Origin: Longimicrobiales bacterium
GTDB taxonomy: Bacteria; Gemmatimonadota; Gemmatimonadetes; Longimicrobiales; Gaopeijiaceae
DNA: 64,000 bases
Direction: 5' to 3'
NCBI GenBank assembly: GCA_965249195.1
Contig: CBDFLM010000015.1
Coordinates: 476,644-540,643, forward strand
Shown here: one piece after another, positions 5,310 through 61,429 of the stretch
How positions within the stretch are numbered: the first letter of the stretch is position 1
Layout: each line of letters begins with the position of its first letter
The notes under the pieces: generated by a model
Seen by the model: only the letters and a program-made list of their open reading frames with translations
What the model was told of the DNA's origin: nothing
Database searches by the model: none
Made by a program: the position numbers and the translations under genes

Positions 5310-6089
5310 TCACCGACCGAGCCGGGCCGGGTCGAAATCACGTGCGGTGAGGCCGACACCCAAACGCAGATCGGTCCATTCCAAGGTGGTGCTTCCTCCG
5401 TCCCTGAGATCGACCATGGTCATCCGCCCCGCGCGCCAGAAGCCGCCGATCTCACGATAGTCCGCGATGTCGAGCGACCTGCGCCTGGCGCCGCCGCCGT
5501 CGAAGTACTCGACCCTGTGCAGCAGGTAGCGCTCCAGGTCGATCCACAGAAGCTGCCTCGGATAGCCGCCCGCTCCGCCCCGGCGGATCCGCTCGACCAG
5601 CACAGCATCGAGACCGGAGACGTCTTCATCCCTGATCCAGCGATACGAGAACCCCTCCATGCTCGGGGGACTCATGTCGTCGAACGTGAAGTGACTTCCC
5701 AGGAAGCTGTCGCTCGCCTGCGAGCCGCTAATCCGTCTCACCCGACGCGCGGTCGGAAGGTAGATCCACTGCGACCGGCTGCCGTCTGCGGCCAGAACGC
5801 TCAGGAACTCCGTCCTGGCGAGATCGGCGGGCCGCTCGAGCACGATCCGGGTCCGGTCCCCGTCCTGGGCCTCGAGGCCGCGCACGCGCATTTTTCGCAA
5901 TCGCTCCCGATCACCGTTCTCGACCCGCATCAGCAAGTCGGCCTCGAAGTCGCCGTATCCACGACTTCGTTGCTCCATCTCACGGACGATCGCATGCCCT
6001 CGCTCCCGGGCATCCTGCGCCGCGGCACCAGGTGCGGCGAGGGCAGCGACGGTCGCAAGCGCCAACAAGCCGGCCACTTTCGCGCTCAT
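5310..6089 (-). CDS. LolA-like outer-membrane lipoprotein-sorting / periplasmic lipid-carrier protein, partner of the MMPL exporter
   Basis: The true start is the internal Met of MSAKVAGLLALATVAALAAPGAAAQ (signal peptide). It overlaps the MMPL stop as ATGA. The MMPL + LolA-like pairing is known from aryl-polyene / flexirubin lipid-export modules. Confidence 0.6.
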   Translation of the reverse strand: MSAKVAGLLALATVAALAAPGAAAQDARERGHAIVREMEQRSRGYGDFEADLLMRVENGDRERLRKMRVRGLEAQDGDRTRIVLERPADLARTEFLSVLAADGSRSQWIYLPTARRVRRISGSQASDSFLGSHFTFDDMSPPSMEGFSYRWIRDEDVSGLDAVLVERIRRGGAGGYPRQLLWIDLERYLLHRVEYFDGGGARRRSLDIADYREIGGFWRAGRMTMVDLRDGGSTTLEWTDLRLGVGLTARDFDPARLGR

Positions 6090-8432
6090 CGAGGACTCCG
6101 CATGAGGAGGGACCGTATGGCGGGCCTTCGAGCGACGGCCCGCAGGAACGCAGGGAATCCGACCAGATCCGCGGCGAGGGCGAGGATGGCGGCGGAGCTG
6201 GTCAGGAGCCCGACCAGGAAGAGGACCTGGAAGCGCGACAACATGAGCACGCTGAAGCCGCACACGACGACCACTGTCACGACAACCAGCGCGGACCCGA
6301 CCTTTCGGAGCGTTTCAGCGAGTACGCGGTCCACTTCGGCAGACGAGCGCACGTTACGCACGAGGGCCCCGAGAAAGTGGATCGTGTCGTCGGCGACGAG
6401 GCCGAACGCGATCGCGAAGACGATCAAAGTGGTCGGCTTGAGATCGAACCCGCCCAAGCGCATGAGCCCGAGCAACATGACGAGCGGAAACAGGTTCGGG
6501 ACGACTGCGACCAGCCCGAGGCGGGCCGAACGGAACATCCACGACATGGCCATCCAGACGAGAACGATCGAGAACGCGACACCGGGCAGGAAGCGCGAGA
6601 CCATCTGGTCCCAGAGCACTTGAGACAGCTTCACTGTCCCGGTCAGCGTGGCGGACCCCCGCGGCGGCGGGAGGGTTGTGAGCTGATCCTCGAGGCCGAG
6701 CAGGAAGGGGGACAACGCGGAGGAGCCCGCGTCCCGCACGAAGAAGACCACCTGGCCGGCCCCCCCCTCACGGAGGTACACGTCCTCCAGAGCGTCGAGC
6801 TCCTGTAGCTCCGAGAGGAAGAGGAGCTCGGCGACCTCCTCCGTGCTGCGAACCGTCGCGGACGTCCGCTCCTCCCCCGACCCGGCAACACCGGCCTCCG
6901 GCACCGACCCGTACGCGGCGCCCAGCTCGTCTACGAACTGGGGCAAACCCACCGAGCCGAGAACGACCGGATCGGCCTCGCCAAATGCCTGGAGCTCCCG
7001 GATCCATCGGAGCATCTCGGCGGAGTGACCGGGACCATCCCCATTCGTCAGGAACACGTTGACCTGAAACACGCCGAATCCGGCATCCTCTATCCAGCGC
7101 AGCTCCTCGAGGATCGGATCCCCGTCCTTGAGGTCGTCGATGAGCAATGCGTGCACACGAAGCCCACCCCCGAGCGCGAGCCCGAGGCCGAGTAGGACGG
7201 CGAATACCCAGTTCGGCCAGCCCGGGTGGATTCTCAGGGTCGCCTCTATCCGGCTCACGACGGAGCGACCGAGTCGCTCGCCCAGCGGCTCGTCGGGACC
7301 GAGATCCGAGGCGAACGAGAGGAGCGCGGGCAACAGGGTCGACGTGACGCCGAAGGCCGCTATCACGGCCAGGCCGGTCACGATCCCGAACTCGTAGACC
7401 AGGGGATTCCGCGTGGCCACCAGCCCCACGAAGCCGAGCGCCGTCGTCAGCGAAGTGAAGAAGCAGGAGCGCGCCAGCGTGGCGAAGGTGGCCACGACGG
7501 CGTCGGGCACCGTACGCCCCCCCCTGCCATCGTTGCCGGGCTCCAATCACGAGGTGCGTCGCGTCGGAAAGGGCCACCACGAGGATGACGATCGGCACCG
7601 CGCTCGTGAGCACGGAAACCGCCCGGCCCACGTAGCCCATGACCCCGAGCGTCAGGAGGATTGCCGGGGCGACGGACGCGAAGCACAGGAGGGCGAGGGA
7701 GAGGCGTTGGAAGTACGCCCAGAGCAGGGAGAGCGAGATGAGGACGCCGAACCCCAACAGCTTCGTCATATCCGCTTCGAGCGCGAGCGGCACCGTCACG
7801 CGTAGGATCGGCAGGCCGTTCAGGATGATCCGGCCCGCTCCCGCGGCTATCTCCTCGATCTCGGCCTGGAGGAAGGCCGTGACCTCCCTGCGCCTTGCGT
7901 CGCTGTCGTCGGCCGGATCCAGATATCCGTGTACGGCGAAGACGGTCAGGTCGTCGTTCCACAGGGTGGCGGCGAAGAGCGGGTGATCCCGACGGGGTTC
8001 GAGCACTTCGTGCAGCCGCGCGTCCGACAGGCCCGTCTCGTCGCGGGGTCGCCGGAGCCGCACCGCCGGCTGACCGTCCTCGAACGTCTCCTCCACGAAT
8101 TCCGTGGATCCGATCCAGCGGACGGATTCCAGCCCGGCCTCGTCGAACGCTCGGGCGAGGCGCTCGAGGGTGCGGTACTCCTGGATACCGAAAGTGCCCG
8201 TGACCTCCAGGAATGCCGACACCTGGAGGTCCTCCTTCGGAAAGTGCCGTTTGAACGCGTCGTACGCCTCCCGATCTCCGCCCTCGAACGCGAAGAATTG
8301 CTGGGCCGAGTAGTCCACGCGGACGTCGCTGGCGCCGACGAGCGCTGCGACGAGCAGCGCCCCGTGGATGACGACCACACTCCCCCGTCGCTGGACCAGG
8401 AGTCGGAAGAACGCCTCGACGCGCGGGTTCAC
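6086..8432 (-). CDS. MMPL / RND-superfamily lipid exporter (HpnN-like), frameshifted at a G8 tract
   Basis: The N-terminal half is real in frame 6768..8432 up to ...ALSDATHLV. The C-terminal half is real in frame 6086..7546 (…TVPDAVVATFATLARSCFFTSLTTALGF…TLLPALL, then a second periplasmic domain plus TM bundle). The frames switch at the homopolymer 7517-7524. Confidence 0.75.
7517..7524. repeat. C8/G8 homopolymer at the MMPL frameshift junction
   Basis: cgtacg-CCCCCCCC-tgcc read directly. It encodes the RGG / QGG junction of the two MMPL frames. Confidence 0.9.
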
Positions 8433-9827: not shown

Positions 9828-10938
9828 GGCCGAGCACCTCGTCGACGTGAAAGGACTGGTAGAACCACGCCAGGTCGCGCTCGTGGAGCCCGTGAGCGAC
9901 ATCGGAGCGCGGGCGCACGCGACCCGCGAGACCCGGTGGCATCGAGCGCGGCGTGAGCAGATTCCAGTACGCGAGTCGGGCACCCGGCCTGGAACGCTCC
10001 ACAAGCGCACGGTACACGCGCTCGTGCTCCGCCGTACTCATGTACTCGAAGATGTCCGACAGGTTGAATCCGTCGAAGCTCCCCGCCGCCTCCTCGACCG
10101 GGCCCCGGTGTATGCGGAGCCGACCGATCCGCTCTCGCACCAGGGGCCGGAACTCCGGGCGCAGGTACCGAGGCAGTGCCCCCGTCCGGTAGCTGCCGGT
10201 CATGATGCAGGTCAGGTAGGGGTTGGTGTCCGTTGGCAGCTCGATGAGGGCGTGGCGCGTGCGCGCGAGGATCCGACCGGCGACCGGACCGTTGACGTGC
10301 TCGAAGAACGCCGGATCCCTTCCGAGACGACCCATGACGGTCCGACTGAAGAACAACCGGAATAGGAGCCGCCACCTCCAGCTGTCCCAGGAACGACGGT
10401 AGAACGTCTCACGATCATCTCGAGATCGTGGCTGCAGCAGCGCCTCCACCGTTCCCGCCGAGTGGATCAGCGGGAGTACGCGGGCACGAAAGGTCCGGAA
10501 ATAGGCTTCGAACCTCCCCGCGCGTGCTGCACCGGCCTGTACGAGCTCCGGCCGGCCGTCCCAGAAGTCACGGGCGAAGCCCGGCAGGGCCGAACGGAGG
10601 CGCCTGTACGTCGCGACTCGGTCCGTAGAGGGGAACACACCGAGGAAGGGCAGCAGGTCGGCGTCGTCGAGCTCGGTGAACGCCGCAATGCGAATCGCCA
10701 CGCACGCGAGCTGTGCCGGGCTCAAGTCGACGGCGACGACCTCTCGCGGATCGAGGGTCAGAAGAGCCAGCGCGTTGTCTCCCGCCGAGGCGATGCTCAG
10801 GAGCCGGCCGTCCTGCGCGACGGGGGCGAGCGCATCGCACAGGACGTCCGCGTCCTCCCACACGCTGCCGTACCGGATCGCCTCGAAGCTGGCGCGTTGC
10901 TGAATGGGTCGGTCGTCCCGAGCTTCAGCCGCCGTCAT
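9820..10938 (-). CDS. DUF3419 / BtaA-like S-adenosylmethionine:diacylglycerol 3-amino-3-carboxypropyl transferase family protein
   Basis: IRYGSVWEDADVL...LSIASAGDNALALL...REVVAVDLSPAQLACVAIRIA matches the BtaA signature YAQCWEDP...ITSAG.NAL...AVDLNP.Q. Start chosen at MTAAEARDD, preceded by a GGAGG RBS and overlapping the HMGR stop by 14 nt. Upstream Mets at 10977 and 11019 are possible alternatives. Confidence 0.7.
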   Translation of the reverse strand: MTAAEARDDRPIQQRASFEAIRYGSVWEDADVLCDALAPVAQDGRLLSIASAGDNALALLTLDPREVVAVDLSPAQLACVAIRIAAFTELDDADLLPFLGVFPSTDRVATYRRLRSALPGFARDFWDGRPELVQAGAARAGRFEAYFRTFRARVLPLIHSAGTVEALLQPRSRDDRETFYRRSWDSWRWRLLFRLFFSRTVMGRLGRDPAFFEHVNGPVAGRILARTRHALIELPTDTNPYLTCIMTGSYRTGALPRYLRPEFRPLVRERIGRLRIHRGPVEEAAGSFDGFNLSDIFEYMSTAEHERVYRALVERSRPGARLAYWNLLTPRSMPPGLAGRVRPRSDVAHGLHERDLAWFYQSFHVDEVLGHG

Positions 10939-12255
10939 CTCCGCCTCCCCTCTCGGGGGTGATCCTCGCTCCGTCATTGCGAGGGCGACCCAACTGCGCG
11001 TGCGCCTGCGCGAACTCACCTGCGCAGATCGCGGCCGCGATCGAGATCTCTCCCGCGAGAGCCAGCGCTGCGGTGATCTCGGCGAGCTTCGCCGAGCCGC
11101 CGTCTCCGAGGCACCCCAGGATGCGCAGCGACTCGCTTGCGGTGGGAAGGCGCGTCCCGCCGCCGACGCTACCCACGATGAGGTTGGGCAGGGTCACGCA
11201 GCCGTACAGGTCACCGGCCTCGGTGACCTCCATCCGGCTGAGCGCGGTGCTCGCTTCACTGACGCAGGCCACGTCCTGTCCGCAGGCGAGGAAGACTGCG
11301 GTCACGGCGTTCGCAACATGGCCGCTCACACCGATGGACCCGGTCTGCACACCGCCGATCACGCTCATTCGCCAGTACTCGGCGATGCGGTCGGGGGTCG
11401 TTCGGAGGCGGCCCTCGACCAGTGTGCGAGGCAGCAGCACCTCAGCCGTCGCGTGACGGCCGCGGGTATCGAAGAAGCTGAGCGCCGTGCCCTTCTTGTC
11501 CCCCGACATGTTCGACTCGATGACCCAGTAGCGGGGGGTGACCGGCGTGCGCCGCATGACGTCTTCGCACACCGCGGCGGTCGCGAACGTCACCATGTTC
11601 TGGCCCGCGGCGTCGCCCGGATGGAAGTCCAGAATCAGGTAGATGAGGTTCGCCTGGTGCTGGACGCGCATGTTCACGAGCCGACCGTGCCGGGTTCGGC
11701 TCTCGGCGACCTCACGCACTCGATCGAACTCGCCCACGATCCAGGCGGCGAACCGGATCGCTTCGGCCATCGTGTCGAACGCGAAGCCCGGCGCTCTCTG
11801 GACCTGCTCCACCGTCGTCAGGCATGCGGCCCCCCCCCCGCGAGGGTGACGATGCGTGCCCCACGTGAGTAACTCGCGACCAACGCCCCTTCCGACGTGG
11901 CGAGCGGAACGTAGAAGTCTCCGTGGGCGTGCAGGCCGTTCACCCGCAGGGGCCCGACGATCCCGGTCGGGACGCTCGTCATGCCGATGAAGTTCTCGAT
12001 GTTTCCCTCGAGCCCCGCCGCTGTGGGCGGATCGCCCCGGCCACCCAAATGGGGCAGAGGTCCGGCCATCGCCTCGAGGAACCGCAGTCGTTCAGCCGTG
12101 GCCGCCTCGGTGGTGTCTCCGCGTCCGGGGACCGAGGCAGGGATCGGCCGCTCGTCCGCCGGTGTGGGAGCGAGTGTGTCCTGCAGCTTCGCGACGTCGT
12201 TGCCCTTGCTCAGGCGTCGGGCGATCTTGACTGCGCGCTGGTATGGAATGGGCAT
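10925..12255 (-). CDS. Hydroxymethylglutaryl-CoA reductase (NADPH), class I catalytic domain, frameshifted at a G10 tract
   Basis: N-terminal part in frame 11818..12459: start at [15 protein letters not shown], then [21 protein letters not shown]...[28 protein letters not shown]-terminal part in frame 10925..11812: [11 protein letters not shown]...[12 protein letters not shown]...[14 protein letters not shown]. The junction is the homopolymer 11830-11839. Confidence 0.8.
11830..11839. repeat. C10/G10 homopolymer at the HMGR frameshift
   Basis: gcggc-CCCCCCCCCC-gcgag. A run of 11 (or 8) would restore ...[17 protein letters not shown]. Confidence 0.9.
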
Positions 12256-12269
12256 GGGTCGGGGCCGGT

Positions 12270-13553: not shown

Positions 13554-13704
13554 CAGGAACTGGCTCAGCCCCCCATCTTCACGTGGACCACGTCCCCATA
13601 CGCATTCTGGAGCCGACGCTGCATGGCCGCCGGGTCCTGGCGCCTGCTCAGCACCGTGCGCACGAAGTCGGCGCCGCGGGGTCCGGGTGCTCGGGAGGAA
13701 CGGG

Positions 13705-14793: not shown

Positions 14794-17488
14794 AGGATCC
14801 TCACCTCGCCCTTGCCGGCGTCCATGCGCACACGCTGACCGTTCCGCAGGCGTTCGAGCGGCGAGCCGCCGACCCCGACGATCGTCGGGATACCGAGCTC
14901 CCGAGCGACGACGGCCGAGTGCGAGAGTACGCTGCCCCGCTCGATGATCAGACCGGAGCAGGCCGGGAAGGCGGGGACCCAGCCGGGATCGGTCCGTTCC
15001 GTCACCAGAATCTCACCGTCGAGGCCCTCGGTGTCTTCGAAGCCATGCGCGAGGCGCACCGGACCCTCGATCACGCCAGGGCAGCAGGAGGTGCCTCGCA
15101 GCACGTCGGGGTCCTCGTCGCCGAGTTCGGCCAGGAGGTCGAGGCTCCGCAGCAACGTGGGATGGCGCAGCGTGGCGCCGGCCGCCCCCCGAGTGACGAA
15201 CCGATCCGGAGGGGGGTCCGTGCTCCGGTACTCGTCGAACTCTCGCCGACGCACCTGTGCTAGACCGCCCAGATCGAGGGTGATCGGTCGCCCCTCGACG
15301 AAGGCCAGGATCTCCTCGACCGTCAGGTAGAACACGTCGTGCTCGTCGCTCAGCGCACCGAGCCGCTCCAGGTTTCGACCCACGCCTCGGAAGAGGCGCC
15401 TTACGACGCCAAACGTCCTCGTACGTTCGAATCGCAGCCGCTCCCGATCGCTTACCGCGCGGCGCGCCCAACGCAGGACCGCGAAGTAGATCGGGCGACG
15501 GAGCCCACCCAGGCGGGCACGCACCTGCTCCTCGGCGCCCTCACGAATCGCGGTCTTACGCGCGTTGATCTCCTCCGAAGACGGCACGCCGTTGCGCACG
15601 TACCCCTGCACGCTTGCGACGACCAAGTGCGGTCGATCGTGGAAGTCGAGGGTCTCCAGCTTGAGCTCGTCCACGCAGCGGCAGCCGTACTCCTCGATGT
15701 AGCGCGCCAGATGTGGCCTCAAGTCGGGAGCGAACCCTTCCTGCAGGGCCGCCCACAGGTCCACCGGGTCACCCGTGACGAAGCGCTCGCGAACGGACGG
15801 ATCGCCCTCGACGTGTCGCGCGATCTCGAGCAGAAGACGCATCGGCTCGGTGCTCTTCAGCTCGCCGTGCCCGCAGAGGAGGTCGTTTTGCAGCGACGCC
15901 GCGCCGTCGTCCGGTCCACGTCCCACCCAACTCTCGGTCAGGCTCGCGAGCATCCCGAACGCGATCATGCACCGGGTGTCGTTCACGATCGGAGCGGTCC
16001 AGTGGCGAAGGACCCGGTCCTCCAGGTGGTGGTACAGCGCGACCTGCTCGGTGAGGCTCAGCCTCCCGAGATCCTGCGTCTCGAGGGGACGGCACACGCG
16101 TTCCACCCGCTCCAGGAACCTTTCGTTGGCTCGTACGCCTCCGAACATGCGGGTGCCCAGCCGGAGCAGGAGCGCCATGCGACGCACGGCGCCGTGCCGG
16201 GGCGCCTCGGCGACCACGGAGTCGAAGAGCGGCTGCAGATCGCCCTCCAGCGACTGCTTCACGCCCATCATCGTTTCCATGAACGCGCCGCTCTTGCCGA
16301 CCAGTGGGAACAGCGCCAGCAGGCGATACCAGTTGAGCAGGTTGTAGTACACGCGTCCGCGGACGAGGCCGAGCATGTTGCGGAACATTCACTCGCGCTC
16401 GTGGACGAGGGCGTCGGGGACCCCCATGATCCTGCACGTCTGGAAGTAGACCTCCCGGTACGCCCTGCTCACGTGTGAGAACGTGAGGGGCGTTGTGACG
16501 CCCGCGTAGCTCTCGATGATGTTCGAGTTGTCCCAGATCACCGCGTTCCCGCCGGCGACGCGTTCGTCGAAGAGCGAGTCCGGAGGCAGCGTGGTAATGG
16601 GGCGGGTCTGAAGCGAATAGAGCCGTCCGCCCGAAAAAGCCCACTCGAAGTCCTGGGGCGACCCGAGCTCGCGCTCGAGCCTCAACGACATACGGGCGAC
16701 CTCCCGCACCTGGTCGTTCGTGAGCGAAGGCCGCCTCGAACGGTCGGCTTCGACGGGAACTAGGTGGGTCCCGCCGTTCGGGCCGCGCACGATGGCGCGC
16801 GACTTCTCGGCAATCGTCGTCACGAAATCCAAGGTGGTGCGGTCCACGACGAAGCGGTCGGACTCCAGCTCGCCTCCGACGATGCCTTCGCCCTGGCCCC
16901 ACACGCTTTCCACGACCAGCCCGTCTCGATCGCCCGGGTCGAGCGGGTTCCGCGAGAATGAGACCCCCGCCGAATCCGAATCGACCATACGCTGCACGAT
17001 CACGCCCATACGGGGCACCGTGTCCGCGGCGCCGATCGCGCGACGGTAGGCCACGTTCCGCTCGGAGAAGGCCGACGCCCAGCACCGTCCGATCGCGTCC
17101 AACACCGTGTCCGCGCCCCGCCGGTAGAGGTAGGTCTCGAACTGGCCGGCGAACGAGTGCTCCGTGCCGTCTTCATCCAGACCGCTGGAGCGCACCGCGA
17201 CGTACGCATCGTCGAGCTCGAGCCGGGAGAGCGCGCCACGGACCGCGCTCGCGACCTCCGAAGGCACCCGCAGCGTGAGGGTTCCCGCCGACTGGGCGTC
17301 GGCGGACGAGCCACCCGCGCGACGTACCGCTTCCGCGAGAGAGCGTCGAACGCTTCGACGGCGATGCAGAACCACGGGGGCACGGTGCATCCGATCTTTT
17401 CCAGGGCCGCGAGTCGAGCGGCCTTGCCCCCGGCTCTCACGGATAGGGTGTTGGCAGGCGAGTGCGGGCCGAGGGGCTCGATGCTCAT
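14790..17488 (-). CDS. PEP-utilizing enzyme (PpsA / rifampin-phosphotransferase-like: PPDK_N ATP-grasp plus C-terminal phosphohistidine swivel domain), disrupted by a frameshift near 17333-17344 and an in-frame TGA at 16389-16391
   Basis: True N-terminus MSIEPLGPHSPANTLSVRAGGKAARLAALEKIGCTVPPWFCIAVEAF sits in the 17000..18388 frame. The gene continues in frame 16389..17543 (...AVRSSGLDEDGTEHSFAGQFETY...GVIVQRMVDSDSAGVSFSRNPL...) and ends ...VHERE-TGA-ATG-FRNMLGLVRGRVYYNLLNWYRLL. It then runs to 14790, where the swivel domain GVIEGPVRLAHGFEDTEGLDGEILVTERTDPGWVPAFPACSGLIIERGSVLSHSAVVARELGIPTIVGV is found. The start overlaps the UbiA stop as ATGA. Confidence 0.7.
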
Positions 17489-18381
17489 GCTCCCACCCCC
17501 GTCCACTGCGCCAAGGTCGGAGCGAGGACCTGGGTGAACGCAAAGAGCGCGGCGAGCCCCTCGACCGTCTTGAAGCGCTCGGGGTGCCGCGCGACGTGGA
17601 CGATACCGCAGAGAAGCGCGGCGCCCGCAGGCCACACGAAGACGTGCACGCCGACCTGGAACGCGGAGACGGCAGCTAAAACGACGGCGAGGGTCACCGC
17701 GGTGAACGTCCACCCCGGACCCGACACCGTGAGGTACGTGCCGAGGGCGGGATGAGCGTCCGGGTCGAGCTTGCGGCACAACTCGAGGGCGAAGGCCGCC
17801 CCCAACCCCGTCAAAGCGAACCAGAGGACCGGCGCGGTGAAGGTCGAGGTCGGCACGGCGGCCGCGGTCGCGAACGCGTAGATCGGGACGATGATGACCT
17901 GGTGCGTGACGGCGTACAGGAACGGTCTGCCACCCAGGCAAGTCGGCGCGAAGAACTCGCGGTACATGAGTAGGGCGTAGAGCACGCACAGACCGAAGAG
18001 GGCGCCTGGCAGGACACCGACACCGATCGCGATCGCGGCGGCACCGAGCAGGAGCCCAGTCACGCAGAGCCACAGCCCGGTGCGCGCCCCTCGCTCGCTC
18101 AACAGGCCACGAGGGAGGGGACGCTCGGGGTGGGCTGCGCGATTCTTGTCGAGGTCCTTCAGCTCGTCCATCAGCCGCATCGCCGACAGCAGGCCGGCGA
18201 TCCCGAGGACCGCGATCACGAGGCCCCCCACGTCCAGGCGCGCCCTCACCACGTACTGGGCCGCCGCCTGCGCCGTACCGAACACGAGCAGCGCGGGGAG
18301 CTGGAACCGCTCCCGGACGAAAACGCTCCACGCAGCGAGGAGCGAGCCTGGCGCCCGAGCGGCATGGGACATCTCGCTCAT
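17485..18381 (-). CDS. UbiA-family aromatic / polyprenyl prenyltransferase (integral membrane)
   Basis: 298 aa from MSEMSHAARAPGS. Asp-rich motif LMDELKDLDKNRAAHPERPLPRGLLS (NDxxDxxxD, RPLPSG) plus 8-9 TM helices. The track ORF 17485..19563 upstream of this Met is Arg-rich junk. ATGA overlap with the AMP-ligase stop. Confidence 0.8.
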   Translation of the reverse strand: MSEMSHAARAPGSLLAAWSVFVRERFQLPALLVFGTAQAAAQYVVRARLDVGGLVIAVLGIAGLLSAMRLMDELKDLDKNRAAHPERPLPRGLLSERGARTGLWLCVTGLLLGAAAIAIGVGVLPGALFGLCVLYALLMYREFFAPTCLGGRPFLYAVTHQVIIVPIYAFATAAAVPTSTFTAPVLWFALTGLGAAFALELCRKLDPDAHPALGTYLTVSGPGWTFTAVTLAVVLAAVSAFQVGVHVFVWPAGAALLCGIVHVARHPERFKTVEGLAALFAFTQVLAPTLAQWTGVGA

Positions 18382-19818
18382 CGTCCAATACCTTCCTTGG
18401 ACAGCGTCGCGGAGCGGTCGATCCGGGCGCGGTGCCGCCGATCGCGCACGATCGAGACGTCCACGGCGCCCTCGATCTCCGGAAAGCGGCTCGAGAAGTG
18501 CCAGCCCGCTGCGGCGACGCGGCGCTGGACCGCCTCGCCGTAGAGGATCAGGCGACCGTCCTGACCGCGACGGACGAAGCACGCGCTCGTGCGGAGCTCG
18601 GAATAGAGCCGCTGCTCGAGGTCGAACTCGCCCGCGGCCTGTGACGCCCGACCGGCGTACCACCACCCTTCGTCGTCGGCGATGACACGATCCCCCATGC
18701 TGTGCCAGCGGCGGCCTTCGGTGTCGTAGCGGCTCCCCCCGTTCGCCTGGGCGGATCCTTCGTCCAGTCGGGTGGCGACGTTGTCTCCGCTGACCCAGAG
18801 TCCGTCCGGCTCGGGGCGTGCGGAGATCACGGGGACGGGCACACCGATGAAGAGCGCCTGGAACAGGTTGCGGGCCTGGCTGCGCTCGACGGCTTCGCGG
18901 GCGTCGACCTTCGCGACGGGCTCCGCCTCCGGCCCGCCGTAGACGTGTGTCCACCCGGCGTCTGGCCAGCGCCGGAAGCAGCGCTCGAGGATCCGGCAAT
19001 CGGTCTGTGCTCCTCCTACCACGACCGATCGCAGACCGCTCAGGTGCTCGCGCGTCTGGTCGAACCTCAGCAAACTCAGGAGGAACGCTGGACCCGTGGT
19101 GAGCGTGGCCACCCGGAGCCGCTCCGAGAGGGCCGCGATCCCGCGCAGCTCGGCGCGACCCCAGCGCTTGGGGACGAGCAAAGCGCCTCGGCCCGTGCCG
19201 AGGTGGAGGAGAGCGAGGTTGGGGAAGACGCAGAGGGCGGGCTCGTCGAACCGATCGAGCGGATCGCCAGCGGTGATCGCCTCGTGTAGGCTCCACATGC
19301 ACTTGTGGCTGCGGACGATGCCCTTGGGAGGGCCGGTGGTTCCAGAGGAGAACGTGATGGTGGCCGTGGCATCCGGATCCACCTCTTGGCAATCGAACGT
19401 CCGCGACCCAGCGAAGCGCACGGCGCGGCCGATGTGGATCCATCGCCGAATCCGCCGCGCGGCCGGGACCCGCGCCGCCCAGAGCTGCGCGAGGCGTGAG
19501 CCGATGAAGGCCCTGGGAGCCACCCGGTCGAGCACGTTCTGCACCTCGCGCAGCGGGAGCCACGGCTCCACGAAAACGATGATCACGCCGAGCCCGAGGA
19601 GGGCGAGGATGGTCGCGTAGAGGAGTGGGTCAGGAGGGGACAGCACCAATACCGTGTCGCCCGCCGACAGGCCTTCGCGCTTCGCGAGCGCTTGTGCCCC
19701 CCCCCCCGGCCAATCGGCCGATTTCGCCGAAGGACACCCGGCCGTCCTTGAGCGTCCAAAGCGCCGGGCGGTGCGGTCGTTCCCGCAGGTGCGGCAATAC
19801 CCGGGTCGCGCAGTTCAT
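18378..19818 (-). CDS. AMP-dependent synthetase / ligase (acyl-CoA synthetase / fatty-acyl-AMP ligase family), frameshifted at a G11 tract
   Basis: N-terminus MNCATRVLPHLRERPHRPALWTLKDGRVSFGEIGRLAGGGG in frame 19630..19818. It continues ...AQALAKREGLSAGDTVLVLSPPDPLLYATILALLGLG in frame 18378..19649, with AMP-binding motif TFSSGTTGPPKG. The junction is the homopolymer 19697-19707. Confidence 0.75.
19697..19707. repeat. C11/G11 homopolymer at the AMP-ligase frameshift
   Basis: ttgtg-CCCCCCCCCCC-ggcc read directly. Confidence 0.9.
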
Positions 19819-20396
19819 GGAGCCTCGTTCAGCCGCTTGATGTTGCCGATGTTGCGCCGAAAGATCCGCGCGATCTCGTAGGCAGAGAGGCGCATGAGGA
19901 CTTGGTCGGCCACGCCGGGGTCATCGCGGAAGAAGAGCGTGAAGCTCAGGCGGCAGGCGTCCTCACCCAGGGGTTCGTAGATCTGCTCGGTCACGAGCTC
20001 GCCCCTGGTGGTGGGTGCCCCCTGCACGTTGTAGATGCGGAGTCGACGCCGGAGCGGTCCCACGAGCTCGAAGTACTCGTCCCAGGTCATCCCACTTTCG
20101 TCCGCGTTCTTGAATGACCGTCGAATCGACCCCCGTGCGCCGTCCTTGGCCTCGTGCGGGTTCAAGGGGGTGATGTGATCGACGAAGACGGACCAGGCGC
20201 TCGCGTTCCTCGAGTCGGCGAGGTACGCGAACACGCTCCCGCAGGCGTCTGCGATGTCGACGCCTTCCTTGACGAGCCGGTGGGCGTATCCCGCGTGGTG
20301 CCGGTAGGGACTCCAAAGAAGCACGGCAGCGAACGCGGATAGCGGAAGCACGAGCACCACATACCTGATCTGCGGGCGTCTCACGATCGTCTTCAT
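19815..20396 (-). CDS. SRPBCC (START / Bet v1-like, polyketide-cyclase-type) lipid-binding domain protein with N-terminal membrane anchor; first gene of the operon
   Basis: 193 aa. N-terminal TM YVVLVLPLSAFAAVLLW, then about 150 aa with an alpha/beta pattern typical of Polyketide_cyc2 / SRPBCC. ATGA overlap with the next gene. About 1 kb of lower-GC non-coding DNA lies upstream. Confidence 0.5.
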   Translation of the reverse strand: MKTIVRRPQIRYVVLVLPLSAFAAVLLWSPYRHHAGYAHRLVKEGVDIADACGSVFAYLADSRNASAWSVFVDHITPLNPHEAKDGARGSIRRSFKNADESGMTWDEYFELVGPLRRRLRIYNVQGAPTTRGELVTEQIYEPLGEDACRLSFTLFFRDDPGVADQVLMRLSAYEIARIFRRNIGNIKRLNEAP

Positions 20397-21394: not shown

Positions 21395-21452
21395 TGAAGT
21401 GACCCCCGGAACCTGATCCAGTTATTGTGGGACTCCTTGAGCAGGAGGAGTC

Positions 21453-22579: not shown

Positions 22580-22608
22580 TTTTTGGATCAACTTCGGGGG
22601 TCACTTCA

Positions 22609-33772: not shown

Positions 33773-34417
33773 ATGCGGCTATACGAGATCGTCTTCATCT
33801 TCGAGGCGTCCGTGACCGAGGACGCCGTTTCGCAGCGCTTAGAGAAATATCTCGAGCTCGCTGTGGGCACCGGTGGCGAAGTCCATGCCGTCGATCATTG
33901 GGGAATGCGACAAATGGCGTACCCCATCGCACGACACAAGTCCGGTTATTACGTCGTGGCGCAGTTCAGCACCGATCCGCAGAACCTTCCCGAGCTCGAG
34001 CGGCTACTCAAGCTCGACAACGACCTTCTGCGCTACCTCATCGTTCTCAGCCAGGGCGAGCCGACGTCCGGGATGTCCGTCGTGACGCAGCGGACGGGTT
34101 CGGGGGAGGCTTCCGTCGAGGAAGACGAGGACGACGATGAAGACGAGGACGACGATGAAGACGAGGATGACGACGATGACAGTCCGCCGGAGTTTTCCGG
34201 GGGTCGAGGCCGGCGCAGGCGCCACGAAGGCCCACCGATCGAGCTCCTCAACTACAAGGACGTCTCGACCATAGCGCGTTTCCTGACCGAGCAGGGAAAG
34301 ATCTTGCCGAAGCGGACGACCAAGGTGACGGCGCGTTTTCAGCGCCAGTTGGGGACGGCGGTCAAGCGAGCACGCTACCTGGCGCTGATACCCTACGTAC
34401 GGGAACACGCCGGTTGA
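33773..34417 (+). CDS. rpsF-rpsR: In-frame fusion of ribosomal protein S6 (rpsF) and ribosomal protein S18 (rpsR) through a poly-acidic linker
   Basis: S6 part: MRLYEIVFIFEASVTEDAVSQRLEKYLELAVGTGGEVHAVDHWGMRQMAYPI...YYVVAQF. Linker: EEDEDDDEDEDDDEDEDDDDD. S18 part: GRGRRRRHEGPPIELLNYKDVSTIARFLTEQGKILPKRTTKVTARFQRQLGTAVKRARYLALIPYV. There is no stop codon and no in-frame ATG / GTG / TTG between the two parts. Confidence 0.7.
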   Translation: MRLYEIVFIFEASVTEDAVSQRLEKYLELAVGTGGEVHAVDHWGMRQMAYPIARHKSGYYVVAQFSTDPQNLPELERLLKLDNDLLRYLIVLSQGEPTSGMSVVTQRTGSGEASVEEDEDDDEDEDDDEDEDDDDDSPPEFSGGRGRRRRHEGPPIELLNYKDVSTIARFLTEQGKILPKRTTKVTARFQRQLGTAVKRARYLALIPYVREHAG

Positions 34418-41109: not shown

Positions 41110-41926
41110 ATGCCAAAGAGTTTTCAAGGGACGATGAGACTGACCGTCCTTGGATCGGGGACGCTCGTTCCTGACGACGACCGGCGTTGCGCGTCCCACC
41201 TCGTGGAACTCGACGGCGCCCTCCTGCTTTTGGATTGTGGCCCAGGCATTTTGCACGGATCATCACGATATAATGTTCCATGGCAAAGATTTACACATAT
41301 CTTCCTAACCCATTTTCATACCGACCACGTCGGTGATCTTCCGCACCTATCTGTTCGCGTCCGCGTACGGAATCGACCCCCCCCCCAGGGAGCCACTCAC
41401 GATCCTCGGTCCTCACGGCCTCAGCGCGTTTCTCGAGGCACTCGGCGAGGCCCACGGGACGTTCATCGGGGACCCGGGGTTCCCGCTCGAGGTCGTCGAG
41501 CTTGGAGGCCGCGACGAATGGCATGACATGGATGCTTCCTTCACGCTGCGCACGCAGGAGTCGAGGCATACGGAGGTCTCGCTTGCGGCCCGCGTGGAGT
41601 GCGATGGCGTGGCTCTCGCTTACACCGGGGACACTGGGCCGAGCGCCTCGCTGGGGGCGTTCCTGGCTGGAGCGCAGGTGCTGCTGGCCGAGTGCAGCTT
41701 GCCCGATCCCCCGCCCGTAGATCGCCACTTGAGCCCACGCGGGGTGGCCGACCTGGCTCGCACAGTCGCCCCCGAGCTACTCGTGCTGACACACGTCTAT
41801 CCGCTTCTGGCGCTCGACGATCTGCCGGGACTCGTGCGCGACGCGGGCTGGCCGGGCCCCACCGTCGTGGCCCATGACGGGCTATCTGTCGAGATGGGAA
41901 GGGACGCAGTCGTGGTGACGCGCTGA
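41110..41926 (+). CDS. MBL-fold metallo-hydrolase (RNase Z / ElaC-like), frameshifted near 41340-41352
   Basis: Frame 1: MRLTVLGSGT...HIFLTHFHTDHVGDLPHL. It continues in frame 2 (41333..41926): LFASAYGIDPPPREPLTILGPHGL...AYTGDTGP...VLTHVYP. A one-nt offset sits in ccgcacctatctgttc, upstream of a C10 run that encodes PPP. Confidence 0.65.
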
Positions 41927-42101
41927 CCGGACTCGACGAGTAGCTCGGCGCTGAGCGAGCCGCGATAGGCCGTGGACGGCCGCCAGCCCGCGTTCTAGAC
42001 TTGAAAGGTGGGTCGGAGCGGGTCGACGTCCGTTGCCGCGGGCGCCCCGACCGGCCCAAGCTCCGGAAGGGATTTCTACTTCTGTCGCAGAAGGGAACGC
42101 G

Positions 42102-43152
42102 ATGTTGGTCGTGATGCGGCATAACGCCACGCAGGCGGAGATAGCGAACGTCGTCGAGGTGATCGAGGTGATGGGGTACCAGGGCCGGCCCATTCCAGGA
42201 AAGCAGCGCACCGCTGTGGGCCTCATCGGCAACGATGGTGGCGTTGATTCTGCACGGCTCCAGGTCCAGCCCGGCGTTCTCGAAGTGATTGCGGTCACCC
42301 AACCCTATAAGCAGGTCTCACGTGAGTGGCGGGAAGAAGACACCGTCATCACGCTCGACAACGGGACCATCGTGGGCGGCAGCGACATCGTAGTGATGGC
42401 CGGGCCGTGCGCGGTCGAAGGTGAACGAGAGATCATCGACATCGCCTTCGTGAGCTGGGAGCGTCCGTGCTGCGGGGGGGGGGGGGGGCGCATTCAAGCC
42501 GAGGACATCACCGTACTCCTTCCAAGGCCTGGGCCAGCAGGGACTCGAGCACTTGGCGAAGGCGCGCGCGGAGACCGGCTTGGCCATCGTGACCGAGGCC
42601 CTTGATCCAGAGGGTGCCGAGCTCGTTGCGGCCTACGCCGACATCGTGCAGATCGGGGCCCGCAACATGCAGAACTACCCTCTGCTGAGAAGGGTGGGAC
42701 GACTCGGTCGGCCCGTCCTGCCCAAGAGAGGAATGAGCGCCACGATCGACGAGCTGCTGCTAGCGGCCGAATACGTCCTCGCCGAAGGAAACGAGCACGT
42801 CATTCTGTGCGAGCGTGGCGTGCGTAGCTTCGATACGCATACGCGCAACCTTCTCGATCTCACGGCTGTTCCGGTCGTTCAGGCGCTGTCCCACTTGCCC
42901 ATCATCGCTGATCCGAGTCATGGCACCGGCCTGCGCTCCAAGGTGATTCCGATGGCCAGGGCCGCAGTGGCCGCAGGCGCTGATGGCTTGATCGTCGAGG
43001 TGCACGCGGACCCTCCGCGGGCCCTCTCGGACGGTGCTCAGTCGCTCTACCCGGAGCAGTTCAGGGACCTCATGGCCCAGATCAGCGTCATCGCGCGGGC
43101 TATTGGACGACGCCTCGCCGCCCCGCTTCCCGAGGTGGCACGAGCCACCTGA
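42102..43152 (+). CDS. 3-deoxy-7-phosphoheptulonate (DAHP) synthase, type I-beta with N-terminal ferredoxin-like regulatory domain (aroF / Thermotoga type), frameshifted at a G15 tract
   Basis: N-terminal [27 protein letters not shown]... then catalytic ...[20 protein letters not shown]. After the G-run the true frame reads [41 protein letters not shown]...IGARNMQN...ADPSHGTG. The track splits it into 42033..42605 and 42553..43152. Confidence 0.8.
42474..42488. repeat. G15 homopolymer inside the DAHP synthase gene (encodes a poly-Gly junction)
   Basis: tgc-GGGGGGGGGGGGGGG-cgcattcaag read directly. A run of 14 (or 11) would give ...[15 protein letters not shown] in frame. Confidence 0.9.
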
Positions 43153-54855: not shown

Positions 54856-54983
54856 GGTCGACTCCGGTGACAGTAGCGAGCAGGGTTCGGCATGGACCCT
54901 TACCGTTTCCCGCTGTGATTGACGAGAATAAGTTACCGCTCCTCTTCGCTTGCCTGAACCTCAACGTCCCCAAGTGATACGCG

Positions 54984-55319
54984 ATGCGTTACCGACGCCC
55001 ACCGTTCCCGCGTGGCCGGCCGAAGGACTTCCGCTCGACCGTCCACGGCACCGTATTCGCTGGTCGGGACCGGCACCTCGAAGGCATGATGGCCGGTGAC
55101 CGGGTCGTTCTCATCTCGGATCCTCCCGGCCAACCGCAGCCCGAGGTGTGGGTGCATCTCGAGTCCGGCGATCCCCTCGGGCATCTTCCCCCGGAGATCT
55201 CGTCGTGGCTCGGACCCTGGCTGAGAAGGGGGGGGAAGGCCGAAGCGAAAGCGGTGAAGGTCCACGGATCCGAGGTTCCCAGCTGGCGCCGACTGCTTCT
55301 CGAGGTCTCCTGCGGGTAG
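54984..55319 (+). CDS. HIRAN-domain protein (stand-alone)
   Basis: ...VHGTVFAGRDRHLEGMMAGDRVVLISDPPGQPQPEVWVHLESGDPLGHLPPEISSWLGPWL fits the HIRAN pattern. The G8 run at 55228-55235 is read through in frame. Confidence 0.55.
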   Translation: MRYRRPPFPRGRPKDFRSTVHGTVFAGRDRHLEGMMAGDRVVLISDPPGQPQPEVWVHLESGDPLGHLPPEISSWLGPWLRRGGKAEAKAVKVHGSEVPSWRRLLLEVSCG

Positions 55320-55575
55320 TGTGGTGGTGCGGAAGTCGTGGGGCTTTGGGCGCGGCTGTATTCACCCCACGGGCGTTGCTCTTCCTCGGACCAACACTTG
55401 TGGCGGAGTTGCGCCCCAAGCTACGACTCGTCGTCCCTTGTACCGGGCGCCGCTTTCGGATGCAAGCGGTCCGACGCTTCGACGGTCTCGATGCTGGACA
55501 GGACTCCTGCACCTCCACCTGGATGAGGGTGGGTCGCGACCCTACGACGCTTCCGCAGGACTTGGCAGGGCCCGA

Positions 55576-56332: not shown

Positions 56333-57619
56333 TCATTCGGCTCTCAGTGCGGTCACCGGCTCGAGACGGGACGCGCGGTGGGCGGGAATCAGGCCAAACA
56401 ACATGCCGGTCAGGGCGGCCATGGCCAGAGCGACGATGACGGACCAGAGAGGAATGCGGGCGGGGATCGGCGTGAAGTGTGCGACGCCGAACGCCGTGCC
56501 GCTCCCGAGGATCATACCCACAGCTGCCCCGAGTACGGTCAGGAAAGAGGCCTCCACCAGGAACTGCCAGAGAATCTCTCGCTGCGTTGCCCCCAGTGCC
56601 CTGCGCACGCCGATCTCGCGGGTCCGCTCCGTAACCGAGATCAGCATGATTCCGATGACTCCGACGCCGCCTACCATCAAGGCTGCGGACGAGAGGGCCA
56701 GCATGACCAGGAAGAAGACGCCGGTGAGCCGGTTGAAGAGGTCGATGATCTGGGCGGAAGCCAAGAGCGCAAAGCCGTTCTCTTGTCGAGGCCGAAGTCC
56801 TCGCATTGCGCGCATCAAGCCGATTACCTGGTCTTGAGCTTGCTGTTGCGTGACCGAGTCGTGGGGCACCACCAGGATCTGCGCCTGCTCATCGGAGACC
56901 TTGAGGCGCTTCAGGGCCGTGGTGTATGGGAACACGACCCAGTGCCTGACGACGGCCGAGAAGACGTTGTCCTCGGGCTCAAACACACCGATGACCGTGA
57001 AGTCTTCCTGCACGTTTCGTCGCCCGGCCCCGATCCTGACACGCCTCCCGATGGGGTCTCGCTGGCCGAACATCTCCTCCGCCAGCGCAGCGGAGATCAC
57101 CATGACCCCGCGCGCGTTGGCTACCTCGAGGTCGGTGAAGTCGCGACCAGCCAGGAACCGACCGGGGGAGTACCTTTGCCATCCGGCCGAGTAGCCCTGA
57201 GACTGGACGTTGGTCACGCTCCGGCCTTCGAACGTGGCGCGGACGCTGAAGCTGAAGTTGTAAAGCGCCTCTGCGACCGCCGGTAGGGCCGCGATGCGTG
57301 TCGCCTCGCGGGCCGTGAGGTCGGGCTTGTCCCACCAGGGCGGGCGGTTACCCTCCGCCAGTCGTACGGCGGTGAAGTCGAACCGGGTGACCACGAAGTT
57401 GTCGGGTCCCGCGCTTTCGAAGGCGCTCATGACCGACGAGCTAATTCCGGTGATGAGAGCCGCCATGGTCACTACGACCGAAACGCCAACCGCGACGCCC
57501 AAAATCGTCAGGCTCGAGCGTAGCCAATTGATACGCAGTGAGTCCACAGCGATGAGAGTCCCTTCCCGAAGCGTCCGCAGGGGTTGGAGCGAGAACCGCG
57601 GCCCGTGCGGGTCATTCAT
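56333..57619 (-). CDS. ABC transporter permease, MacB / FtsX family (periplasmic MacB-PCD plus FtsX TM domain)
   Basis: 428 aa. N-terminal TM, large periplasmic domain, and a C-terminal 3-TM FtsX bundle. No fused ATPase. Confidence 0.8.
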   Translation of the reverse strand: MNDPHGPRFSLQPLRTLREGTLIAVDSLRINWLRSSLTILGVAVGVSVVVTMAALITGISSSVMSAFESAGPDNFVVTRFDFTAVRLAEGNRPPWWDKPDLTAREATRIAALPAVAEALYNFSFSVRATFEGRSVTNVQSQGYSAGWQRYSPGRFLAGRDFTDLEVANARGVMVISAALAEEMFGQRDPIGRRVRIGAGRRNVQEDFTVIGVFEPEDNVFSAVVRHWVVFPYTTALKRLKVSDEQAQILVVPHDSVTQQQAQDQVIGLMRAMRGLRPRQENGFALLASAQIIDLFNRLTGVFFLVMLALSSAALMVGGVGVIGIMLISVTERTREIGVRRALGATQREILWQFLVEASFLTVLGAAVGMILGSGTAFGVAHFTPIPARIPLWSVIVALAMAALTGMLFGLIPAHRASRLEPVTALRAE

Positions 57620-61133: not shown

Positions 61134-61429
61134 CACGGATCCCCCCCCGGCGGGGCGTCGACCGGCATCGCCGTGACGGACGTCACGAACGAACCGCTTA
61201 GTGATACACGACGCGAGCACCCGCGGTCCTGCTCCCGGCAGGGGACTCGTTTGCACGTTTCCAAGGCCACTGGTCCACGGAGGCAGTCGCCGAGCGGCCG
61301 ATCGAGGCGGAACGACGCGGCGTCGCCGCAGCGGGCACCGCGGCCAGAGGCCTTGGCCCAAGGGGTTCTGACCACGAGTCGCAAGATGCGGGCGCGGCCG
61401 GATGGCCCGGGGACTTCGGTGCCGGCACA

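Follow-up and report, generated by a model that had tools for sequence, protein, structure and literature searches.

Poly-G and poly-C tracts that change length by slipped-strand mispairing constitute the contingency loci of Campylobacter, Neisseria and Haemophilus, and a 7C tract is found in glpK of M. tuberculosis. The locus described here resembles these systems in carrying a coding-region poly-G tract with frame-toggling length differences between very close strains. However, the gene encodes a core shikimate enzyme, its 'ON' lengths lack a catalytic-site Arg, and nothing points to adaptive switching. A second likeness is with recent pseudogenes that bear compensated frameshifts, in which an opposite-phase indel pair keeps the ORF open and scrambles 12-14 residues. 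Such pairs are present here as a 7-nt deletion combined with G8 (assemblies L001 and L002) and as an extra T combined with C9 in a neighbouring MBL-fold gene (L002), the remainder of the sequence being undecayed. Unlike in those pseudogenes, the compensating site is hypervariable and the open state is unstable across strains. The closest technical parallel is the IDEEL-type problem of homopolymer errors in long-read (ONT/HiFi) MAGs, which is alike in its breaks at G/C runs, in a discordance that rises with run length and in low coverage (PMC9262707, PMC13087279), as well as in the different set of broken genes in each assembly. As for the protein, the AroF of Thermotoga maritima (PDB 1rzm), with its N-terminal FXD/ACT-like regulatory domain, shares the same architecture and the downstream barrel motifs, whereas no allele found here keeps VLRGG in frame with the rest of its motif.

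The window, that is, the whole 64-kb stretch of DNA that was analysed, has a GC content of 66.2%, and the host of the gene is an uncultured, Longimicrobiales-like member of the Gemmatimonadota. The DAHP synthase (DAHPS) gene begins at an ATG and ends at a stop codon (Table 1), the listed start at 42033 being no more than the TTG that comes first in that open frame. No uninterrupted ORF of about 340-350 codons covers it: the window ORFs 42033-42605 and 42553-43152 differ in frame, and a 347-aa DAHPS ORF is called in L002 only. When its three frames are joined, the reconstructed protein aligns end to end with the T. maritima structures 1rzm and 4grs, and also with 1vr6 (E~1e-99), and Pfam assigns to it an FXD domain (PF18152, 1-67, E=2e-15) and DAHP_synth_1 (PF00793, 2-263, E=3e-71). 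These matches bear out the identity proposed by an earlier sequence-only reading, an aroF-type enzyme; the architecture is type I-beta, with an N-terminal ferredoxin-like domain preceding the TIM barrel. Its closest species-level relatives come from Gemmatimonadota/Longimicrobiales MAGs (79-81% identity), and no second DAHPS is found elsewhere within the 64-kb window.

Table 1. Features of the window, with positions counted from its first letter.
Feature	Position	Strand	Remarks
Disrupted type I-beta (aroF/FXD-type) DAHP synthase gene, three reading frames	42102..43152	+	PDB and Pfam matches
N-terminal part, frame 0	42102..42446	+	FXD domain, barrel start, metal-ligand Cys in AGPC; ends ...EREIIDIA
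7-nt deletion junction	42446..42447	+	Two codons and one base lost (relatives have, e.g., cAC CAG C); common to five assemblies
Native 12-residue relic segment, third frame	42446..42481	+	Helix alpha1 end, strand beta2, PEP-binding Arg; frame starting 42422
G15 homopolymer	42474..42488	+	Probably from Arg-Gly-Gly codons CGG GGG GGC, native G7
C-terminal part, frame 1, ~220 codons up to stop	42490..43152	+	No internal stops; barrel motifs all retained
MMPL/RND-type transporter	6086..8432	-	Frameshifted at C8 7517-7524; sisters C7, intact 780 aa
HMG-CoA reductase (HMGR)	10925..12255	-	Frameshifted at C10 11830-11839, needs 8 or 11; Pfam
PPDK_N-domain gene	16389..17488	-	Broken by missing A at 17341 (GA-repeat context)
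AMP-dependent ligase	18378..19820	-	Frameshifted at C11 19697-19707 (C10 in frame); 5' end approximate
MBL-fold hydrolase	41110..41926	+	Broken by extra T at 41350; neighbour of DAHPS

The reading frame of the DAHPS gene changes twice: frame 0 gives way to frame 2 at 42446/7, and the G tract shifts this to frame 1. The first of these lesions, overlooked in the sequence-only reading, is a 7-nt deletion located 28 nt upstream of the tract. Its junction, GCCTTCGTGAG, which joins GACATCGCC to TTCGTGAG, is the same in the window and in L001-L004, five assemblies from at least four samples. At this site all 80 of the 80 relatives compared possess two additional residues, and the alignment with the PDB structures shows a 2-residue gap in the reconstruction after DIA. 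Because of the deletion, a conserved segment that fits the family consensus L[RK]xxGAxxLRGG now lies in the third frame. The Arg of this segment binds PEP (PMC6362186) and is invariant in the relatives (80/80). The PEP-binding Arg and Lys do not share a reading frame: frame 2 encodes the Arg segment, frame 1 AFKPRT. From the metal-ligand Cys of GPC to the Lys of KPR, the spacing is 27 residues in 80/80 relatives and 25 in the allele that combines the deletion with G8; in the window, where the frame shifts between the two residues, it is undefined.

The location of the G15 tract in the catalytic core, as the sequence-only reading had it, is borne out, since the tract falls in the E4P-binding motif and leaves the downstream ~220 codons out of frame. 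It was also held that the tract breaks the gene, which does not stand: the deletion, present in all five assemblies, had damaged the gene beforehand, and the G tract is therefore not what breaks DAHPS. The related proposal that 14 G would restore the frame is right as arithmetic, as the ORF reopens, but the native protein stays lost and its invariant PEP-binding Arg stays missing. We rejected G14 as a restored gene on this ground, 14 native residues being replaced by 14 others. Likewise, reads with 14 G would not, as had been suggested, make the case a pure assembly error, given that the sister assemblies carry G8 or G9 and that an in-frame tract is still non-native. In the in-frame G8 allele, 12 different residues occupy the place of the native motif stretch, and the ON alleles lack both the invariant Arg and 12-14 native residues. 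At no tract length is the native active site, with its PEP-binding Arg, recovered. When the in-frame allele of L002 was searched against the database, no match exceeded ~81% identity and none had FVSWERPCC; the allele is private to this population.

The G15 itself is present in the window sequence, as the sequence-only reading had reported, and its length is confirmed to be far above chance expectation. Under a first-order Markov model of the window, nine G/C runs of at least 8 nt are seen against 4.4 expected, four of at least 10 nt against 0.36, and one of at least 15 nt against 0.0007; the sequence-only reading, which used base composition alone, had arrived at the right order with roughly 0.01. 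The three other runs listed previously, at 11830, 19697 and 7517 (10, 11 and 8 nt), are all found in place; they read as C on the plus strand and as G on the coding, minus strand. A fourth run of 10, which had not been listed, is the C10 at 41377-41386 in the MBL-fold gene. Two of the runs in these 64 kb exceed 10 nt; among complete bacterial genomes, only ~1% surpass a density of one such run per 100 kb (PMC9262707).

Comparison with four sisters of ~99.8% identity shows G8, G8, G9 and G9 at 42474, G15 being found in the window alone, where it represents one consensus from one assembly of that strain. The tract thus toggles the frame among close strains, with an open ORF at G8 and G14 and a closed one at G9 and G15. 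The G9 carriers are the clade of L003 and L004, which is defined by 12 SNPs, and the extra T of the MBL-fold gene divides the strains in the same way as 5 SNPs do. As G9 and the extra T track these SNP groupings, some indels at least are inherited. The G8 versus G9 difference could still be noise in such low-coverage sisters. Among the disabling lesions, the 7-nt deletion (5/5 assemblies) and the -1 phase of HMGR (4/4) are common by descent, and the T at 41350 is distributed in line with the SNP phylogeny. Within the 1-kb DAHPS gene, L001 (at 42879) and L003 (at 43096) have private 1-nt indels, for which read noise is possible. SNPs among strains amount to four non-synonymous and two synonymous ones in DAHPS, N being similar to S in all genes at such divergence, and the N-terminal changes include 42177 Y>H and 42435 I>F. 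The downstream 220 codons show no visible decay, and therefore any inactivation must be very recent. The upstream and downstream flanks of the tract gave 0 matches in two JGI metagenome scans, and the species is therefore absent from that material.

Taking these observations together, the reading that we prefer, with a slightly better than even chance of being right, is a recently dead or crippled DAHPS copy in which the 7-nt deletion came first, the tract then slipped unconstrained, and ±1 long-read noise lies on top. The founding lesion would be the deletion, which would have thrown the PEP-binding Arg segment out of frame. The tract would have grown from the CGG GGG GGC codons (native G7) of the substrate-binding motif; the longest run of the relatives at this site is indeed G7. 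After the deletion, tract length would govern only the reading of the downstream ~220 codons, and slipped-strand mispairing without constraint would have produced 8-9 G in the sister strains and ~15 in the window strain. More generally, Gly is often encoded by GGG and Pro by CCC here, and Gly-Gly and Pro-Pro-Pro stretches would make up native runs of 7-10 nt, which may be at once the most slippage-prone in vivo and the least reproducibly sized in assemblies. In this best reading the G15 exists in the organism as an exceptionally long poly-G of unstable length, although its exact count is uncertain and may be off by ±1 or more in a long-read assembly of this kind. From its lesions, the DAHPS copy was most likely inactivated recently, or is at best crippled, and we infer that the gene is non-functional. 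What is seen is homopolymer slippage plus long-read length noise, of a known kind and with no new mechanism, and more than one cause lies behind the association between runs and frameshifts. Biological slippage and sequencing chemistry, the two options offered by the sequence-only reading, were the right pair, as both contribute.

How much of this is technical can be gauged from run lengths across assemblies. The sisters are low-coverage long-read assemblies (contig names tagged 1x-5x, from which names alone the sequencing platform was deduced) with many private indels in good genes. For runs of up to 7 nt, window and sisters give the same length in 1141 of 1145 cases compared, but from 8 nt upwards in only 2 of 19, so that reproducibility falls off steeply as runs get longer. 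Pairs of assemblies of the same strain differ too, always by ±1 and increasingly with run length (0/1538 at 3-mers, up to 1/2 at 9-mers and 1/1 at 10-mers). This collapse in concordance, and the same-strain differences at 9- and 10-mers, favour a possible though doubtful alternative, pure sequencing and assembly artefact. All strains would then carry the deletion with G8 (or another single length), the over-long window tracts (C8 vs C5, C10 vs C7, C11 vs C10, C10 vs C9, C8 vs C7) would be consensus errors, and the HMGR, AMP-ligase, MMPL and DAHPS breaks would be absent from the organism. The sister contigs at 1x-5x provide precedents, in that private indels shatter good genes in L090 (+1 at three runs, histidine kinase broken), L092 (at 1x) and L087 (five breaks within 21 kb). 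Published warnings agree with this explanation: consensus homopolymers of at least 10 nt are still problematic and low-coverage bins require polishing (PMC9262707), and the truncated proteins found in MAGs from long reads are described as 'in general errors' (PMC13087279). The density of runs above 10 nt, atypical of real genomes (PMC9262707), and the one-directional bias of the window, whose discordant tracts are longer with one exception, point the same way; the excess could be an insertion bias of one assembly.

Against the artefact, the noise amounts to ±1 only, whereas a platform-typical error (±1, rarely 2) falls short of the window differences at 6760 (+3), 11830 (+3) and 42474 (+6/7); an addition of 7 to G8, or of 3 to C5 or C7, lies far outside it. 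The same assembly sizes 206/206 5-mers and 14/15 7-mers like the sisters, as well as three 8-mers (55228, 61141 and 63366), and 30 kb of housekeeping sequence contain no other private indel; across 9 kb, the window and L091 differ by 0 indels. An artefact further leaves unexplained the 7-nt deletion, located outside homopolymers in five assemblies, the T at 41350 and the HMGR phase in four assemblies. The +3 and +6/7 differences, we infer, are biological. The idea that the sisters merely compress long runs was discarded, the differences being non-monotonic (8 vs 5 once, 8 vs 8 at three sites, 15 vs 8-9). Exact-protein look-ups for 14790-16388, 13705-14793, 19815-20396, P0025 and 57612-58853 gave no matches, that for YbaB gave no further contigs, and a literature search on the ENA/Logan accessions found no paper.

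An improbable alternative is that the tract dynamics are functional, as heritable frame-restoring or phase-variable switches, the window being really G14 and the protein made and used. An upstream lesion (the deletion in DAHPS, the extra T in the MBL-fold gene) would be offset by slippage in a tract 27-28 nt downstream. Consistent with this, both genes of L002 are open only through their compensating pairs, the spacing of 27 conserved in the relatives is reproduced by G14 alone, one base off G15, window and sisters differ by an exact multiple of three at 6760 and at 11830, and nothing is damaged in the 220 codons downstream. However, the invariant PEP-binding Arg is encoded by no allele, and several strains are uncompensated, namely L001 and L003 in the MBL-fold gene (no T, C9) and L003 and L004 in DAHPS (G9). 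A core biosynthetic enzyme also belongs to an unlikely gene class for a contingency tract, and the consensus would have to contain an error of one base, no more and no less, on the side that suits the hypothesis. The stronger version, in which G/C tracts are real frame-restoring buffers and the window G14 with a poly-Gly linker rebuilds the 27-residue spacing into a working or regulated enzyme without the canonical Arg, seems quite unlikely. Recoding, whereby RNA polymerase slippage or ribosomal frameshifting on long G/C runs would express the genes much as frameshifted genes are rescued at poly-A tracts in insect endosymbionts, is exceedingly improbable: the breaks do fall exactly at long homopolymers with open and conserved downstream frames, its sole support, but slippage at the tract is unable to reverse the upstream deletion, tract lengths vary between strains where a programmed site would need conservation, and the MMPL and AMP-ligase tracts are in frame in sister strains.

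The preferred reading, a recently dead or crippled copy overlaid with length noise, has two kinds of consequence. As a caution, G/C runs of about 9 nt and above are unreliable in length both in the window MAG and in the sister assemblies, and, unless reads back them, the frameshifts called at these runs in HMGR, the AMP-ligase, MMPL and DAHPS offer no basis for scoring phase variation, auxotrophy or the loss of a gene. The biological content is that the aroF-type DAHPS of this population has a genuine 7-nt deletion that puts the invariant substrate-binding Arg out of frame. If there is no second DAHP synthase, this predicts aromatic amino-acid auxotrophy or an alternative pathway entry in the lineage.

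The coincidence of long G/C runs with frame breaks, also pointed out in the sequence-only reading, is upheld by repaired translations at the C10 of HMGR, the C11 of the AMP-ligase and the C8 of MMPL. Here Pfam continuity and sister gene calls were used, as the gain in ORF length after ±1/2 run edits was too noisy at 66% GC and Viterbi frame segmentation alone was inadequate, leaving gene boundaries and frameshifts inseparable. The HMGR gene after addition of 1 nt matches PF00368 over 3-368 of 368 (E=4e-102). Its relatives read LAGGAACL, which requires G8; L087, L088 and L089 have C7, in the same -1 phase as the window C10, and the gene is split in every one. All four assemblies have HMGR in one and the same wrong phase (C7, C7, C7, C10); the gene looks genuinely frameshifted across strains, which suggests that an accessory lipid/isoprenoid cluster is decaying. 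The long-run breaks are located in HMGR, AMP-ligase and MMPL, all of one accessory cluster, and in DAHPS. Removal of 1 nt brings the AMP-ligase into match with PF00501 from profile position 6, the sisters having C10 (L087) and C9 (L088), and gives MMPL a 788-codon open frame that fits the intact sister gene. MMPL also contains an in-frame +3 at 6760-6767 (C8 vs C5), which adds one Gly. The C10 at 41377 was considered as the frameshift of the MBL-fold gene and dismissed: the native reading requires C10, which lies in the native frame (10 in the window vs 9, 9, 9 and 8 in the other assemblies), and the lesion is the extra T, 27 nt upstream. The housekeeping genes tested between 34.4 and 54.9 kb (SMC, DnaX, RecR, GrpE, DnaJ and MnmA) have intact ORFs in the window, and the missing A of the PPDK_N-domain gene is the sole window-private frameshift away from long runs.

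The aroF-type DAHP synthase gene (DAHPS) that carries the long poly-G tract matches the T. maritima enzyme over its full length (1rzm/4grs/1vr6, E~1e-99), and its nearest species-level relatives lie in Gemmatimonadota/Longimicrobiales MAGs (79-81% identity). Three-frame translation places the N-terminal segment in frame 0, the canonical Arg-bearing motif in frame 2 (42446-42481) and the downstream part in frame 1, the two frame changes lying about 28 nt apart. All 80 fetched relatives have two more residues after the Ala, and the lineage has therefore lost 7 nt (two codons and one base) at 42446/7. The same 80 relatives show a spacing of exactly 27 between the metal-ligand Cys and the Lys of KPR, and an invariant Arg in [LFY]R[GA]GA. 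The motif around this Arg is the PEP/E4P-binding one in type I-beta enzymes; structures from Tm, Pfu, Ap and Mt show the Arg bound to PEP (PMC6362186). Reconstructed from its three frames, the protein would be expected to work like a T. maritima-type enzyme, whereas the gene as encoded fails three defining features, namely a single continuous ORF, an in-frame motif and 27 residues between Cys and Lys.

The native tract is G7 (cgG GGG GGc). A sequence-only reading had proposed that fourteen G would restore the frame; G14 does reopen the ORF but yields an altered peptide, and no tract length returns the PEP-binding Arg to frame. Neither G14 nor a stable G15 would carry the meaning proposed there (assembly error and pseudogene, respectively). 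To that reading the present analysis adds the 7-nt deletion, the tract lengths across assemblies, a measured noise level and this warning on G14 and stable G15.

Exact-protein look-ups turned up sister contigs in further ENA metagenome assemblies and a single Logan run; they share 99.4-99.9% identity with the window and span 33.85-55.5 kb (L001-L004), 0.9-21.8 kb (L087-L089) and 46-64 kb (L090-L092). The deletion sits outside any homopolymer and is common to the window and L001-L004, with an identical junction (GCCTTCGTGAG) in all five. Among the sister assemblies an intact DAHPS ORF (347 aa) is called in L002 only, and two more private 1-nt indels lie inside the 1-kb gene, in L001 and L003.

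Probably, though with considerable room for doubt, this DAHPS copy is crippled or disabled by the deletion, its tract then slipping freely under an overlay of technical noise. The deletion would have struck the population's aroF-type DAHPS in a recent common ancestor, leaving the Arg-Gly-Gly codons to turn into an unconstrained mononucleotide repeat. Slipped-strand mispairing would have changed its length to 8-9 G in sister strains and about 15 in the window, before the remaining ORF had time to decay; HMG-CoA reductase (HMGR) and its accessory cluster would behave likewise, with ±1 technical noise overlying the biological change. Two familiar phenomena cover the case, slippage at homopolymers within relaxed or pseudogenised genes and noisy homopolymer lengths in long-read MAGs, and no new mechanism is called for.

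Homopolymer runs of at least 8 nt and other features of the window, with run lengths in sister assemblies
Feature	Position	Strand	Window	Sister assemblies	Remarks
Accessory biosynthetic cluster	~6086-20396	-			members named in the text
Run in MMPL	6760		C8	5, 5	in frame in both
Run in MMPL	7517		C8	7, 7	sisters intact, 780 aa
Run in HMGR	11830		C10	7, 7, 7	no assembly in frame
PPDK_N gene	16389-17488				
Run in AMP-ligase	19697		C11	10, 9	C10 in frame
Candidate IS3-family element	21441-22579	+			by reading of translations
orfA	21441-21719	+			HTH
orfB frame	21530-22579	+			DDE-type motif (DNGSEF)
Truncated tyrosine-recombinase C-terminus	22576-23178	+			by translation; after IS element; no Pfam match
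MBL-fold hydrolase gene (MBL)	41110-41926				
MBL allele: T at 41350, tract 41377-41386			+T, C10	L001, L003: no T, C9; L002: +T, C9; L004: no T, C8	L002 open, 9 residues scrambled; L004 stop
Run in MBL	41377		C10	9, 9, 9, 8	C10 is native frame
DAHPS gene	42102 (ATG)-43152 (stop)				type I-beta, N-terminal ferredoxin-like domain; PF18152, PF00793
Run in DAHPS	42474		G15	L001, L002 G8; L003, L004 G9	
Runs of 8 nt	55228, 61141, 63366		8	8	concordant, except L090 (+1 at every covered run of at least 7)

The G15 tract noted in the sequence-only reading is real and non-random. It occupies 42474-42488 of a 64-kb window with 66.2% GC, where a first-order Markov model predicts 4.4 runs of at least 8 nt, 0.36 of at least 10 and 0.0007 of at least 15, against 9, 4 and 1 observed; every run of at least 8 nt is G or C. 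That reading's list of runs included G15 and overlooked C10 at 41377, and its interpretation is partly supported, the deletion having gone unnoticed. Because GGG and CCC are frequent (25% of Gly and 38% of Pro codons), stretches of Gly-Gly and Pro-Pro-Pro give rise to native 7-10 nt runs (DAHPS RGG, HMGR AGGA, ligase AGGGA, MMPL QGGR, MBL DPPPR). The C8 run at 61141-61148 (G8 on the coding strand) lies directly 5' of the start codon of a minus-strand ORF ending at 60444 (GGGSV|MSEASLQ), in the ribosome-binding region and outside coding sequence; its length is the same in three of four assemblies.

That the lengths and breaks are purely artefactual is possible but rather unlikely. Noise in the sister assemblies is plain: over 21 kb L087 is privately broken five times at places where the window is whole, and insertions cluster in L092 (1x) and at the end of L004. 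In a clear case of homopolymer bias specific to one assembly, L090 (ERZ28763718) is one base longer at each of the three runs of at least 7 nt in its stretch (window 60370, 61141, 63366); this splits a 1365-aa HAMP/HisKA histidine kinase that L091 keeps whole and that reads open in the window. Several sister contigs carry 1x-5x coverage tags in their names, in a style that we take to be long-read metagenome assembler output. Such low coverage would suit an artefact, as would the bias in one direction, the unusually dense long runs and a threshold in window-sister agreement with run length (861/864 for 4-mers, 206/206 for 5, 60/60 for 6, 14/15 for 7, 2/6 for 8 and 0/13 for at least 10). Consensus homopolymers of at least 10 nt are still problematic, bins below 40x need polishing, and only ~1% of complete genomes exceed one run above 10 nt per 100 kb (PMC9262707); protein truncations in assemblies of this type are 'in general errors', some being pseudogenes (PMC13087279). 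Same-strain assembly pairs (0-4 SNPs apart), from which technical noise was measured, disagree at 0/1538 3-mers, then at 3/378, 2/79, 1/25 and 1/9, and at 0/3 8-mers, 1/2 9-mers and 1/1 10-mers, always by exactly ±1. Given this noise and the published benchmarks, ±1 uncertainty is assumed for every tract of at least 9 nt; the frame state of AMP-ligase (C11) and MMPL (C8) and the exact G15 count cannot be trusted.

Against a pure artefact stand the size of the length differences, the clean window consensus and the shared lesions. At three tracts the window departs from its sisters by +3, +3 and +6/7, well above the measured ±1, but it shows no indels against L091 over 9 kb and equals its sisters at all 5-mers and 6-mers, all 7-mers but one and three of five 8-mers. 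Housekeeping genes tested between 34.4 and 54.9 kb (SMC, DnaX, RecR, GrpE, DnaJ, MnmA) are intact ORFs in the window. Besides the deletion, the extra T in MBL divides the window and L002 from L001, L003 and L004 exactly as five SNPs do, G9 is common to the L003 and L004 clade, itself defined by 12 SNPs, and all four assemblies have HMGR shifted out of frame in an identical phase (C7 in three, C10 in one), 7-mers being reproducible otherwise. Breaks at long runs affect HMGR, AMP-ligase and MMPL, in one accessory cluster, and DAHPS; those of MBL and PPDK_N sit away from long runs.

Functional compensation or phase variation is improbable. In L002, DAHPS (deletion with G8) and MBL (+T with C9) are open through compensating pairs only, each 27-28 nt apart, and G14, one base off the call, alone restores the 27 spacing; however, the Arg is in frame in no allele, compensation is lacking in other strains, and this is the wrong class of gene. 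Recoding through slippage at the tract is most improbable, since it cannot undo the upstream deletion. MBL, which adjoins DAHPS, is broken in every assembly, each differently, and its native reading (no T with C10) occurs in none of the window and L001-L004. In both genes the upstream lesion lies 27-28 nt 5' of the tract.

The accessory cluster comprises the MMPL transporter, DUF3419, HMGR, cytochrome P450, an Acetyltransf_6-type acetyltransferase, a PEP-utilizer (Rph_4th domain), the PPDK_N protein, a UbiA prenyltransferase and the AMP-ligase. It may be decaying, since frameshifts affect four of its genes in the window, and HMGR in all four assemblies. At 17341 the window is one A short relative to L087 and L088 (GAGAGAAGC -> GAGAGAGC), which breaks PPDK_N and is the sole window-private frameshift away from a long homopolymer. 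Inside MMPL, C8 at 6760-6767 against C5 in both sisters is an exact in-frame +3 (REGGAGQ versus REGAGQ); this step exceeds the ±1 noise measured and has the look of a genuine gain of a Gly codon by the window strain.

Elsewhere, (CT)4 at 1755-1756 against (CT)3 in L087 is a slippage-type difference of one unit, and 18 nt at 34121-34138 (GAAGACGAGGACGACGAT, an acidic E/D repeat) form an in-frame tandem duplication private to the window, all four sister assemblies lacking it. The candidate IS3-family element gave no Pfam match; its orfA/orfB overlap is the usual programmed -1 frameshift layout and no lesion, and the L087 locus has the same HTH_Tnp_1 gene as the window. Synteny with sample ERZ28763718 breaks at a Transposase_mut IS element (window ~54975-55500, L001 21238-21671, L090 11388-12269): regions contiguous in the window lie on three contigs of more than 1 Mb (ctg124771, ctg124598, ctg124574), which points to IS-mediated rearrangement or assembly breaks between strains.
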